NCBI GenBank assembly: GCA_021781955.1
Contig: JAJXVV010000004.1
Coordinates: forward strand, 1,739 to 65,738
Reading direction: 5' to 3'
Source: a bacterium
GTDB lineage: Bacteria > Patescibacteriota > Minisyncoccia > Phycocordibacterales > UBA2100
DNA: 64,000 nucleotides
The notes beneath the pieces were generated by a model. That model did no database searches. It was not told the origin of the DNA and saw nothing but the letters and a program-made list of their open reading frames with translations. The first letter of the stretch is position 1. Every line of letters starts with the position of its first letter. A program made the translations under genes and the position numbers. Shown here one piece after another: positions 10,835-52,671 of the stretch.

Positions 10835-13443
10835 TCCCGCTTCTTTCTCAACACTCGTTTGAGGTAATGCCCCGTGTGCGAGCCATCGGTGCGGGAGACC
10901 TCTTCGGGAGTCCCCTGAGCCACGATCTGCCCGCCACCCGCGCCTCCTTCAGGGCCCATGTCGATGAGATAGTCGGCGCACTTGAGCATGTCGAGATTGT
11001 GCTCGATGACGACGACCGAGTTGCCGCGATCGACAAGCTTCTGCAGTATTTGTATGAGCTTCGCAACGTCGTCGTAATGCAAACCGACGGTCGGCTCGTC
11101 GAGCAAGTAGATGGTCTTGGTCGTAAGGGGACGATACAGTTCGGACGCGATCTTCACGCGCTGCGCTTCCCCACCGGAAAGCGTCGTCGCGCTCTGGCCG
11201 AGTTCGAGATAGCCGAGCCCCACGTCTATGAGCGTTTGCAGCCGATCGGCTATCGCCGGAATATCGTCGAAAAATCCGCGCGCCTCCTCGACCGTCATCG
11301 AGAGCACGTCGTGGATGTTCTTTTTCTTGTATTTCACCTCGAGCGTCTCTTTCATGAACCGCTTGCCATTGCACACGTCGCAGGTCACGTACACGGTCGG
11401 CAAAAAGTGCATCTCGACGGCGACGAGCCCATTGCCTTGGCAAGCCTCGCAGCGGCCGCCGCGCACGTTAAACGAGAAGCGGCTCGGCCCCCAGCCGCGC
11501 GCCTTCGCCTCATCGCTCATCGCGAACATATCGCGAATGTGCGTCCACGCGCCCGTGTAGGTGGCTGGATTGCTGCGCGGCGTGCGCCCGATGGGCGATT
11601 GATCGATGAGTATCGCGCGACCGAGATACTCGGTGCCAGAAAATTCCTTGGCGTTGTAAATTTTGGCCGTGCGGTAGCGCTTGTCGAAGCGCGCCCGCAA
11701 ATTGCGGTGCAGTATCTCGTAGAGGAAGGTCGACTTGCCGGAACCGGAAACGCCCGACACGACGACGAACTTCTGGAGCGGTATGTCCGCGTTGAGGTTC
11801 TTGATGTTGAATTTCTCTGCGCCGCGTATCTTCAGCTTGCCTCGATCGGCCGTACGGCGCTTCTCGGGAAGTTCGATGCGCTCCTCCTCGCGCAGGTACG
11901 CGAGCGTCCGCGAACCGCTCTTATTGGTCTTGGCGGTAAGCAAATCCTCAAGCCAGCCGGACACGACGATGGTGCCGCCGTGCGTCCCGGCGCCCGGACC
12001 GATGTCGACGAGGTAATCGGCAGCGAAGATCGTATCTTCATCGTGCTCGACCACGAGGACCGTGTTGCCGAGTTCGCGCAAGTGCTTCAGCGTCTCGATG
12101 AGCTTGTCGTTGTCGCGCTGATGCAGACCGATCGTCGGTTCGTCGAGCACGTAGAGCGCTCCGACCAATCCCGAGCCGAGCTGTGACGCGAGCCGTATGC
12201 GCTGCGCTTCGCCGCCCGAGAGCGTGTTTGCCTTGCGATCGAGCGTAAGGTATTCAATCCCGACATTGAGCATGAATTGCAGTCGCGACGTAATCTCCTT
12301 GATGATGACGCGCGAGATATCCTGTTCGGTTTTCGTGAGTTTCAGATCGCTGAAGAAGACGATCGCCTCTTCGATGGATAACGACGACAATTTGACGATA
12401 TCTGCGCCTTTCGCGGGCGCGTCGTGCGCTGCGGGTTCCTTTACATGCCCGAGGAACACGTTGAGCGCCTCGGATCGCAGGCGCGCGCCGTGGCACACGT
12501 CGCATGACTCGTCACCGAAGAGGTATTTCGTGCCGAGCCCCTTGCATTCTGGGCATGCGCCATACGGCGAATTGAACGAGAAGAGGCGCGGCTCGATCTC
12601 GGGGAACGAAAAGCCGTCGTACGCACACATGAACTTCGCCGACACGATGCGGCTTTCGCCTCCAACGTCGGTGATCTTCACGAGGCCGTCGGCCTCATGA
12701 AGCGCGCGCTCGATGGCCTCGAGCGCGCGCTCACGAGCGCCTTTCGGGTCGTCGCTGAACTCGCTCACGAAGATATCGTCGACGACGATATCGACATCGT
12801 GCTTGGAATTCTTCTTGAGCTCTATGCGGGAACGCAGCGATTTTTCTTCGCCGTCGACGACGGCCTTTTCGTACCCCTTGTTGAGCATGTCATACAAGAG
12901 CTGGTAATACTCCCCTTTTCGTCCGACCACGACGGGCGCGGCGATGCGGATCTTGTCGGTCGAGACGCCTTTCGTCAGCTTACCGCCGTTTGCGCCTTTC
13001 CGCACCGACTCAACGACCGCGAGGACCGACTCCAGTATCTCCTCATTGGAGAGCTTGCGCACCTCCCTGCCGCACTGCGGGCAGTGCGCGTGCCCTATCC
13101 GCGCGTAGAGGACGCGCAGATAGTCGTATATCTCGGTGATCGTCGCGACCGTCGAGCGCGGATTGTTCGAGCGACTCTTCTGATCGATGGATATCGCCGG
13201 CGAGAGCCCGGATATCTCGTCTACGTCGGGCTTTTGCATTTGCCTCAGGAACTGCCGCGCATAGGCTGAGAGCGATTCGACGTACTTGCGCTGACCCTCC
13301 GCAAAGATGGTGTCGAACGCGAGCGACGACTTCCCGCTCCCCGACAGCCCGGTGAACACGATCATCTTATTGCGCGGCATCTCGACGCTCACATTCTTGA
13401 GGTTATGCGTTCTCGCTCCCTTGATGATTATTTTATCTTCCAT
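10831..13443 (-). CDS. uvrA: Excinuclease ABC subunit A
   Basis: Two ABC ATPase modules ([12 protein letters not shown]; [10 protein letters not shown]), LSGGE signature motifs and zinc-finger Cys pairs. 870 aa. Confidence 0.9.
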
Positions 13444-13524
13444 AGACGCAAAAACCGCCCTCGTTCATTGCGAGGGGCAGGTAGGAGCAACTATATAGCA
13501 TGTTCGCCGCGATATCCACACTTG

Positions 13525-13549
13525 CATACATATTAGTGTATGCTAATAT
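13525..13549. promoter_or_regulatory. Nested palindromes in the uvrA/arsR divergent promoter region (candidate ArsR operator)
   Basis: GCATACA-TATTAG-TGTATGC overlaps ATATTAG-TGTATG-CTAATAT. Both are perfect inverted repeats. They end 6 nt before the arsR ATG, in an AT-rich stretch. Confidence 0.5.
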
Positions 13550-13555
13550 ATACCC

Positions 13556-13819
13556 ATGCATAAAAAGGCGGTACGGGCAGCGGTGAGCAACGAGACCCGC
13601 ACGCGCATCATCGCGTGCCTCGGCACCGGTCATAAGACCGTGAACGAGCTGCGCGCGGTATGCCGCCTTTCGCAATCAGCCGTCTCGCAGCACCTCATGC
13701 GGTTGCGCGCCGCCGGTGCGGTCGCGAGCGAGAAGCGCGGCCGCGAGCGCGTCTATCGCGCGACGCATCCGAGCATCGTGCGCGTATGCCGTTCGATTAT
13801 CAATCTTATCCGATCGTAA
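13556..13819 (+). CDS. ArsR/SmtB-family winged-helix transcriptional regulator; its C-terminus is chimeric with rhodanese-like sequence
   Basis: HTH region VNELRAVCRLSQSAVSQHLMRLRAAG plus the wing EKRGRERVYRA. The usual alpha5 helix is replaced by PSIVRVCRS, which matches the rhodanese active-site strand. Confidence 0.65.
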   Translation: MHKKAVRAAVSNETRTRIIACLGTGHKTVNELRAVCRLSQSAVSQHLMRLRAAGAVASEKRGRERVYRATHPSIVRVCRSIINLIRS

Positions 13820-13906
13820 TCTGCGCAGGGCTTCACGCACGTGACCAACCTCCAAGGCGGGATCGAGAACTGGGGAGCCGCCGGATATCCCACTACTACC
13901 AGCTAA
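13796..13906 (+). pseudogene. Remnant of a rhodanese (sulfurtransferase) C-terminal half, interrupted by the arsR TAA stop
   Basis: In the arsR frame the sequence reads HPSIVRVCRSIINLIRS-stop-SAQGFTHVTNLQGGIENWGAAGYPTTTS. The flanks match the rhodanese consensus (PIVvYCRSG ... GFxnVyNLxGGixaWxxAGYP). The loop between them is degenerate and contains the stop. Confidence 0.5.
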
Positions 13907-13927
13907 TTATCATTTAACAAAATCACT

Positions 13928-14554
13928 ATGGAACTATCTTATTTCCGCAAAAGCACCCGTTCGTTCAGCGAAACGCTGCAAGCGCTTAAGAAGGCTGTAC
14001 CAGCCTCCGGCCTGACCATTCTCGCCGAGAAAGAGCTCGAGAAGGACAAGAAAGCGATGGTGTTGGCTTGCAATCCCGACTGGGCAAGGCGGCTTATCGA
14101 CGCCGATCACCGCATCGCCGGCTTCCTCCCCTGCTCGTTCCTCGTGTTCGAGAAGGACGGCGCGGTCTACGTGGGGAGCGGCGAGGCGTCCATCATCCGC
14201 TCGCTCATCCAGGGCGGTCCGCTCGTCGAGCTCGCCATCGAAGCCGAATCTGCGAGCAGGGCCATCATCCACGAAGCAGCGGGCGTCGGCGAACTCAAGC
14301 CCATGGACGTCCTCGTGTATGCCACCATGACCTGCCCCTATTGCACGAAAGTGAAGGAATGGCTCACCGCGCACAAGATCGAGCACAAAGTCGTCCACGT
14401 CGATCTCGACCGCGAAGCGGGCCGCGCGATGGTGGAAAAGACAGGCCAAATGGGCGTGCCGGTCACGGAAATATCGTACGGCGAAGATGCGGAACCGGCG
14501 TTCGTGCTCGGCTTCGACGAAGCGCGCCTCATGGAGCTGCTCGCGACTCGCTAG
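13928..14554 (+). CDS. DUF302 domain fused to a glutaredoxin-like (CPYC) domain
   Basis: The N-terminal ~120 aa carry DUF302-type CNP and LPC motifs (MVLACNPDWARRL...GFLPCSFLVFE). The C-terminal ~80 aa carry the glutaredoxin active site YATMTCPYCTKVKEWL. Confidence 0.65.
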   Translation: MELSYFRKSTRSFSETLQALKKAVPASGLTILAEKELEKDKKAMVLACNPDWARRLIDADHRIAGFLPCSFLVFEKDGAVYVGSGEASIIRSLIQGGPLVELAIEAESASRAIIHEAAGVGELKPMDVLVYATMTCPYCTKVKEWLTAHKIEHKVVHVDLDREAGRAMVEKTGQMGVPVTEISYGEDAEPAFVLGFDEARLMELLATR

Positions 14555-51609: not shown

Positions 51610-52671
51610 CTAGTGCGCGATGCTCGTGGACGCGCTCCCGCCATAGAGCTTGTAGTACACGCGATTGCCAAACCGCAGATCGATGTACTGCAAGCCGCTC
51701 AGCTGCCCCTGGAGCGGGCCAGACGAGAGTACAAGTTGCAGGTTCTTCACGAGTGTACCGGCATCTTCCCCGAACGAGGCCTTGACCATGAAGCTCGAGG
51801 AAGCGGCCGTATCGGTGATCTCGACGGAGAAATCGGTGTCGTTCTCTACCGCGACGGTCGTGGGCGTAAAGCCAGCCTGTCCGAGCGTGGTCAAGAGCGA
51901 TACGAGCGATGGGAGATGCGTGAGCGCGAAGATCCTGCCGACGGGACTCCCTGGCGCGGTCGCCGCGACGTACGGACTCGTGCTCGTCGCGCCGGAGAGT
52001 CCTCCCTCAAAACGGTATTGGGTAGCGGGGATCGACAAACCGGTCGCGAGTGCGTAGAGAAACCCGCCCGCATCCATTTCGTAGCACGTGGCGGCTGGTA
52101 CGCTCGGCTGCGCTAACATGGCGCCTGGGAGAGTAGGTACGGTACTGCTCGCGGCGCCTGCCGTCTGCGGGGACTCGCACCAGAGCGCAAAGGGCGTGCG
52201 CTCGATTACCGTGACCGTGAGCTGCGTCGAGATCGCCGTATCGCGCGAAAGATGCGCAGACGCGATGCGCGGAAAGTACGAAACGATGTCGGATTCGATC
52301 GCCGCGCGCGGGTACAAAAAGATATTGCGGCGCGAAAAGAAATGGTACGTGCCGTCGTCGAGGATCGAACGCACGTAATCGGCAATGACTTGCGGTGGCA
52401 CGTGTTCGGCCCCGACGACCGTGACGCTCCGTATCGTGAACTTCGGCAGATACGAAGCGTAGTGCGCACCCCACGCGAGCGCGGCGACGAAAACGAGCGT
52501 GCCTATCGCGAAGATGAGGCGTACGCGGCGGCGGCGCGCCCGGAGCGGAAGCGGCCTCGTGCGTTCCTCACGCGGCGGACGGGGAGCGGCCGGCGCAGAA
52601 GTGAAAAGCGACCGCTGCCCCTGGAGCGGCTTACGGGAACGGGCATGCGGCCTCAGATCGATCACTCCCAT
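51610..52671 (-). CDS. ftsQ: Cell division protein FtsQ/DivIB-like (POTRA)
   Basis: Arg-rich cytoplasmic N-terminus, a single TM helix and a POTRA-like segment FTIRSVTVVGAEHVPPQVIADYV. Confidence 0.6.
   Translation of the reverse strand: MGVIDLRPHARSRKPLQGQRSLFTSAPAAPRPPREERTRPLPLRARRRRVRLIFAIGTLVFVAALAWGAHYASYLPKFTIRSVTVVGAEHVPPQVIADYVRSILDDGTYHFFSRRNIFLYPRAAIESDIVSYFPRIASAHLSRDTAISTQLTVTVIERTPFALWCESPQTAGAASSTVPTLPGAMLAQPSVPAATCYEMDAGGFLYALATGLSIPATQYRFEGGLSGATSTSPYVAATAPGSPVGRIFALTHLPSLVSLLTTLGQAGFTPTTVAVENDTDFSVEITDTAASSSFMVKASFGEDAGTLVKNLQLVLSSGPLQGQLSGLQYIDLRFGNRVYYKLYGGSASTSIAH

Follow-up and report, generated by a model that had tools for sequence, protein, structure and literature searches.

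The stretch of DNA analysed here, referred to as the window (64 kb in full length), carries on its forward strand a small repressor gene of the arsR family that is followed, 108 nt downstream, by a gene encoding a DUF302-glutaredoxin fusion protein. The features of the locus are as follows:

13522-13555, forward strand: promoter/operator-like region, with a TTGCA element and the palindrome ATATTAG-n6-CTAATAT (13530-13549), which ends 6 nt before the arsR ATG
13556-13819, forward strand: arsR-family repressor gene, 87 aa, stop TAA at 13817-13819, assigned from Pfam HTH_5, orthologues and an AlphaFold model
13820-13828, forward strand: deletion junction (TCTGCGCAG), with both breakpoints inside, located by DNA alignment with the loci L001, L003 and L002 of related genomes
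13829-13906, forward strand: remnant of a rhodanese gene, consisting of its last 25 codons (GFTHVTNLQGGIENWGAAGYPTTTS) and the original stop TAA
13907-13927, forward strand: A/T-rich spacer, aligning with the 13-19-nt A/T-rich spacers of L001, L003 and L013
13928-14554, forward strand: DUF302-glutaredoxin fusion gene, 208 aa (Pfam DUF302, E 4e-10; Glutaredoxin, E 5.4e-13)

The arsR frame translates as ...HPSIVRVCRSIINLIRS*SAQGFTHVTNLQGGIENWGAAGYPTTTS*, exactly as the initial annotation had written it, such that SAQGFTHVTNLQGGIENWGAAGYPTTTS lies in the arsR frame after the arsR TAA and is ended by a second TAA at 13904-13906. From this arrangement the initial annotation had proposed that a deletion or fusion had destroyed a downstream rhodanese and truncated ArsR, leaving the wing of the repressor fused to a rhodanese strand. 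The two halves of that proposal have distinct fates.

As to the repressor, ArsR is neither truncated nor fused. The protein matches Pfam HTH_5 (34.9 bits, E 1.4e-8), and a search of a 5.8-billion-protein collection with ArsR concatenated with the tail returned seven proteins, namely one identical ArsR and six orthologues with 59-71% identity. None of these seven covers the tail or is an ArsR-rhodanese fusion, the class of protein with which alignment had been recommended. Five of the orthologues are 86-88 aa long, while the sixth is annotated as 72 aa owing to a later start; the arsR of L003 reads through from an upstream ATG. All six share the C-terminus C-R-[ST]-I-x-x-L-x-x-stop, including those that precede a separate, intact rhodanese, so that neither the truncation nor the fusion of the wing to a rhodanese strand is borne out. 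The AlphaFold model, built on the seven-sequence alignment (pLDDT 91.6, pTM 0.80), has helices at residues 3-10, 13-22, 29-36, 40-53 and 72-86 and strands at 56-61 and 64-69, which corresponds to the canonical alpha1-alpha5 layout with residues 72-86 as the helix after the beta wing. Using Foldseek, the model was placed on complete ArsR/SmtB repressors, including SqrR 6o8k, SmtB 8qkf, HlyU, CzrA, BigR and YgaV, over 79-85 of its 87 residues (TM 0.75-0.83), and sequence-profile matches to ArsR/SmtB proteins extend to profile position 79-82 of 87. The protein thus has the winged helix-turn-helix of the family (HTH_5, alpha1-alpha5 and beta wing) and is full-length relative to its orthologues, and the alpha5 helix reported as missing is predicted at residues 72-86, in a model that superposes on complete repressors over about 82 residues. 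Since the orthologues share this C-terminus and the modelled alpha5 superposes on full-length repressors, the supposed rhodanese active-site strand before the stop is ArsR's own alpha5. Indeed, the stretch 'SIVRVCRSI' has no rhodanese match with either Pfam or a rhodanese profile HMM, and the cysteine of 'VCRSI' is helical and out of register with the rhodanese catalytic cysteine.

The sequence after the stop, on the other hand, is a real remnant of a rhodanese gene, as the initial annotation had recognised. The post-stop peptide aligns with positions 82-101 of the 102 of Pfam PF00581 at 14.5 bits (E 0.05), below the cut-off of 22.2 bits, so that orthologues were needed to make the case. When three orthologous rhodaneses were compared with the whole 64-kb window by tblastn, the remnant was the only significant match, pairing with residues 116/117-140/141 of the queries at 76% identity over 25 aa (E 1e-8 to 3e-8); BLASTP of the same peptide against the syntenic rhodanese of L001 gave E 7e-12. 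A further tblastn match at 51856-52167 (E 6.4), inside a 353-aa ORF, was dismissed as noise. A rhodanese profile HMM constructed from 112 homologues was also run on the 1,636 six-frame stop-to-stop segments of the window. The segment 13820-13903 scored 25.9 bits (E 6.5e-7) at profile positions 115-140 of 141, the runner-up having E 7.5, and neither this search nor tblastn detected a second rhodanese in the window. In the coding register, GFTHVTNLQGGIENWGAAGYPTTTS (13829-13903) is the extreme C-terminus of a rhodanese, identical at 19 of 25 residues to the C-termini of both the L001 and the L003 proteins, with 79% and 73% nucleotide identity, respectively. It retains a strand, the GG turn and the C-terminal helix. 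Neither a start codon, nor a membrane anchor, nor the catalytic Cys loop is present, and no ATG or ribosome-binding site belonging to the stub was found. A working member of PF00581 has its catalytic cysteine in a CxxGxR[ST] loop and an alpha/beta domain that is complete, at about 100 residues, and has a start codon of its own; here, nothing 5' of the equivalent of G116 survives. With the catalytic Cys loop and most of the fold missing, the stub cannot work as an enzyme.

The origin of this fragment is revealed by the syntenic loci of relatives, the comparison that the initial annotation had suggested. In L001, L002, L003 and L013, only 1-5 nt separate arsR from a gene for a 140-147-aa rhodanese, behind which lies the DUF302-glutaredoxin gene; the L014 contig stops 132 aa into the same rhodanese, again behind arsR. 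A rhodanese gene is thus found intact after arsR in five loci, allowing for the contig end in L014, and the destruction of a downstream rhodanese by a deletion is confirmed. The intact orthologues are single-domain proteins of 132-151 aa with an N-terminal hydrophobic segment and with CHTGNRS, CRSGRRS or CRTGNRS as active-site loop. In L003 the order is uvrA (reverse), arsR, rhodanese, DUF302-glutaredoxin, murB (reverse) and uvrB (reverse), and the window has this same order minus the rhodanese. Aligned as DNA with L001, L003 and L002, the window matches up to the arsR stop, then shows a gap of about 350 nt, and resumes in register at GGCTTC (13829), from where the match continues through the rhodanese stop and the A/T-rich spacer into the DUF302-glutaredoxin gene. 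With the missing 350 nt or so went the start codon, along with the parts encoding the N-terminal anchor and the catalytic Cys loop. There is thus no degenerate loop between two rhodanese pieces, as had been described: about 115 codons are simply absent. Because the orthologues are only about 70% identical, the breakpoints are placed within the 9 nt of the junction and not to the nucleotide, and microhomology at the junction is not interpretable at this level of identity. The deletion is fixed across samples. Thirteen contigs carry an identical ArsR, and the nine that were fetched, coming from separate samples and assemblies (ENA, NCBI and Logan), match the window at 99.95-100% identity over stretches of up to 6.3 kb. 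The interval from arsR to DUF302-glutaredoxin is covered in eight of these, each with the same 108-nt gap, and the ninth, L012, ends just past the DUF302-glutaredoxin start.

The DUF302-glutaredoxin protein, 206-208 aa in length and with the invariant N-terminus MELSYFRKS, is the constant partner downstream of the small ArsR in every locus. Orthologues are found at the equivalent position in L001-L003, L013 and L015-L017, and the copies of the gene are exemplified by the following:

13928-14554 of the window
4371-4997 of L003
3001-3621 of L016
3001-3627 of L017

No Shine-Dalgarno-like sequence precedes it in any locus, where only the A/T-rich spacer or 3-9 nt are present. From its alignment with relatives, the spacer at 13907-13927 is retained from the intergenic region between rhodanese and DUF302-glutaredoxin, and it is unpaired in the predicted RNA fold. 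The DUF302-glutaredoxin gene and murB, on the reverse strand, are convergent and overlap at their 3' ends by 4 nt (14551-14554), an arrangement that is also present in the gene calls of L003 and L004. A sister clade, composed of L015, L016 and L017, encodes an 86-aa ArsR and a DUF302-glutaredoxin protein with about 60% identity, in a different genomic neighbourhood and with no uvrA upstream. In this clade the DUF302-glutaredoxin gene starts 3-9 nt after the arsR stop and there is no rhodanese:

59-607 of L015: arsR and DUF302-glutaredoxin without rhodanese
2737-3621 of L016: arsR and DUF302-glutaredoxin without rhodanese
2731-3627 of L017: arsR and DUF302-glutaredoxin without rhodanese

A profile search of genome contigs with the DUF302-glutaredoxin alignment yielded two loci, both belonging to the rhodanese-less clade. 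The condition of L015-L017 may go back to a clean loss of its own, or the two-gene state may be ancestral. In either case, as these loci are without rhodanese, arsR and DUF302-glutaredoxin form the constant unit and the rhodanese is optional.

The region upstream of arsR is conserved as well. The motif TTGCA-n3-ATATTAG-n6-CTAATAT is present with the same spacing to the ATG in nine of nine related loci, namely the window, L001-L003 and L013-L017, hence including the clade without rhodanese. The palindrome is probably an ArsR operator overlapping the promoter, and the spacing between motif and ATG suggests that the arsR mRNA would be leaderless or near-leaderless. Between the divergent arsR promoter region and the uvrA start (13443), a GC-rich hairpin followed by a T-run is present on the reverse strand (13458-13476), where the leader of uvrA would be; the scan would turn up roughly one site of this type by chance in the region. 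A distinct observation regards uvrA itself in L007 (GCA_027428535.1), a population contig that is identical in all other respects, where a G to T change at position 469, corresponding to window position 13169, converts codon 92 from TCG (Ser) to TAG, and uvrA is called as two fragments in that assembly. Either the variant is genuine and uvrA-null, or the MAG consensus is wrong at this site.

The in-frame position of the stub has led to the proposal that the arsR TAA is read through at a low level, resulting in an ArsR with a 29-residue C-terminal extension derived from the rhodanese tail. The stub indeed shares the arsR frame and stays open as far as its own TAA, yet one junction in three would fall in frame by chance alone, and none of the five intact loci has the two genes in a common frame, the rhodanese standing at +1, +1, +2, +2 and +2 relative to arsR. 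Because these offsets differ among orthologues, the in-frame stub is a one-in-three coincidence, a by-product of where the deletion ended, and neither the in-frame arrangement nor the extension is conserved in relatives. Moreover, the orthologues all place their stop where this TAA stands, neither a recoding signal nor an RNA structure follows it, and the tail is devoid of the catalytic Cys loop and of most of the fold, so that no rhodanese action would be possible. In bacteria, TAA with a T behind it ranks with the most efficient termination signals. Nothing, therefore, favours read-through, which is extremely improbable. Hardly more credible is an explanation based on an assembly or sequencing artefact, such as a collapsed contig or an erroneous stop, or on a chance similarity to rhodaneses. 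The sub-threshold Pfam score (14.5 vs 22.2 bits) would be in keeping with chance, but the match has no equal elsewhere in the window, its significance against the orthologues is high, and it occupies the place expected from synteny, with its stop codon in register with theirs. As to an artefact, all nine contigs, assembled independently from different runs, agree here at 100% identity, with the stop at its conserved position, which excludes the sequencing error at the TAA for which a check of raw reads had been advised.

A further explanation is that the stub has been kept for a function, be it as a 5' UTR or initiation context, as an internal promoter for DUF302-glutaredoxin, or as the source of a micro-peptide starting at GTG 13841. 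In support of this, the stub has a nucleotide identity to the orthologues (73-79%) that is not below that of the flanking genes, and the deletion spared the A/T-rich spacer found before DUF302-glutaredoxin in every rhodanese-bearing locus. Against it, the DUF302-glutaredoxin gene of L015-L017 lies 3-9 nt from the arsR stop without any rhodanese sequence, indicating that the stub is not needed for expression, and the in-frame GTG 13841 is not preceded by a Shine-Dalgarno-like sequence. The explanations based on RNA were rejected, as no Rfam family matches the stub, its predicted fold is unremarkable (z +0.66), and neither a promoter-like nor a terminator-like site lies in it. The changes specific to the window are also mostly non-synonymous, and a retained function is overall quite improbable. 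A related reading takes the rhodanese for an accessory of a conserved ArsR/DUF302-glutaredoxin sensing module that was discarded twice, leaving a stub here and cleanly in L015-L017, with the stub kept as an untranslated leader for arsR-independent translation of DUF302-glutaredoxin; this is likewise improbable, and the version of the retained-stub reading in which rare read-through produces an ArsR with an altered alpha5 end is still less likely.

The substitutions in the stub that are specific to the window are distributed 1/4/4 over codon positions 1/2/3 and result in four amino-acid changes, as compared to 1/1/4 for L001-specific and 1/1/9 for L003-specific substitutions in the same region, with two residue changes each. 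The pattern of the window goes in the direction expected under relaxed constraint, although it is not significant, the sites being too few. The flanking live genes have nucleotide identities to L001 and L003 of 69% and 73% for arsR and of 69% and 67.5% for DUF302-glutaredoxin, and the stub (73-79%) is no more diverged than these genes (67-73%). As the identity of the stub is not below that of its flanks, the deletion is probably young relative to the split from L001 and L003; a recent deletion would explain the low divergence, as would residual constraint. No closer relative (more than about 75% identity) with an intact rhodanese was present in the protein collections searched, and a chimeric query, made of the L001 N-terminus and the window tail, retrieved no protein with a window-like C-terminus, the best match being 19/25. 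For lack of a close intact relative, breakpoints and age are given at this resolution.

Collectively, these data make it very probable that the 87 nt are the outcome of ordinary deletional gene decay, that is, the dead 3' stub of a rhodanese gene behind an intact arsR. In the closest relatives a three-gene unit runs from arsR to rhodanese to DUF302-glutaredoxin. In the lineage of the window, a deletion of about 350 nt set in no more than a few bases from the arsR stop and extended to about 9 nt short of rhodanese codon G116, taking away the start codon, the anchor and the catalytic cysteine. The last 25 codons were spared together with the stop, as was the A/T-rich spacer before DUF302-glutaredoxin. 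We infer that arsR and DUF302-glutaredoxin are co-transcribed, in which case the stub would most likely just be transcribed as part of a 108-nt untranslated spacer between the two, and ArsR probably still represses the unit via the conserved palindrome over its promoter.

This scenario is in line with known deletional gene remnants, in which a truncated pseudogene persists in an operon: in both cases a 3' fragment of a gene that is intact in syntenic relatives is left with no start or catalytic residues, and with lineage-specific changes that are for the most part non-synonymous. The only oddity here is that the fragment stands in frame directly after the arsR stop, mimicking a fusion. Nothing else about the fragment departs from common gene decay, here in an uncultured bacterium. 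The intact relatives resemble the ygaVP operon of E. coli, made up of the ArsR-type sulfide-responsive repressor YgaV, which uses Cys31 and Cys98, and the membrane rhodanese YgaP (PMC9774250), as they likewise combine an ArsR/SmtB repressor with a downstream membrane-anchored single-domain rhodanese. The ArsR model superposes on YgaV (3cuo, TM 0.75-0.78), but its cysteines are not at the positions of Cys31 and Cys98. In addition, the anchor of YgaP is C-terminal while that of the intact relatives is N-terminal, DUF302-glutaredoxin is a constant third gene, and in the window the rhodanese has been deleted. The intact rhodaneses also share the N-terminal hydrophobic segment and the CxxGxRS loop of PspE-like rhodaneses; several of them are named 'phage shock protein E' by JGI, and their closest solved relatives are single-domain proteins, including PspE 2jtq (E 3e-9), whereas the window keeps only the last 25 residues. 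A literature search combining DUF302, rhodanese and ArsR returned nothing relevant.

As for the repressor, the best sequence and structure matches are found in the SqrR/BigR/HlyU clade of thiol- or persulfide-sensing repressors, with SqrR 6o8k (E 4.4e-11) as Foldseek rank 1 at 34% identity over 82 residues, although ArsR is shorter (87 aa vs 99-111 aa). Three cysteines are invariant in the seven ArsR orthologues, namely C21 in alpha2, C36 where alpha3 ends, immediately ahead of the recognition helix, and C78 in alpha5. The sensing pair of the SqrR/BigR/YgaV subgroup has one cysteine in alpha2 and the other at the C-terminal end of alpha5, and the cysteines of ArsR do not coincide with it. In the HMM alignment C21 is one residue off the alpha2 sensing cysteine of SqrR/HlyU, and C78 falls about 7 residues before the C-terminal cysteine of SqrR. 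Judged by their positions, the three cysteines may constitute a distinct thiol-sensing arrangement, and by analogy with these systems it is plausible that the arsR/DUF302-glutaredoxin module acts as a thiol-based sensor of sulfur or redox stress.

In annotation, a rhodanese pseudogene fragment should be marked at the 87 nt, leaving ArsR as a complete protein of 87 aa. As regards the biology of this uncultured lineage, the conserved core of the locus is the arsR/DUF302-glutaredoxin pair with its putative palindromic operator, while the membrane rhodanese is dispensable, thus providing a modest clue to what DUF302-glutaredoxin fusions and the three-cysteine subgroup of ArsR proteins may sense.
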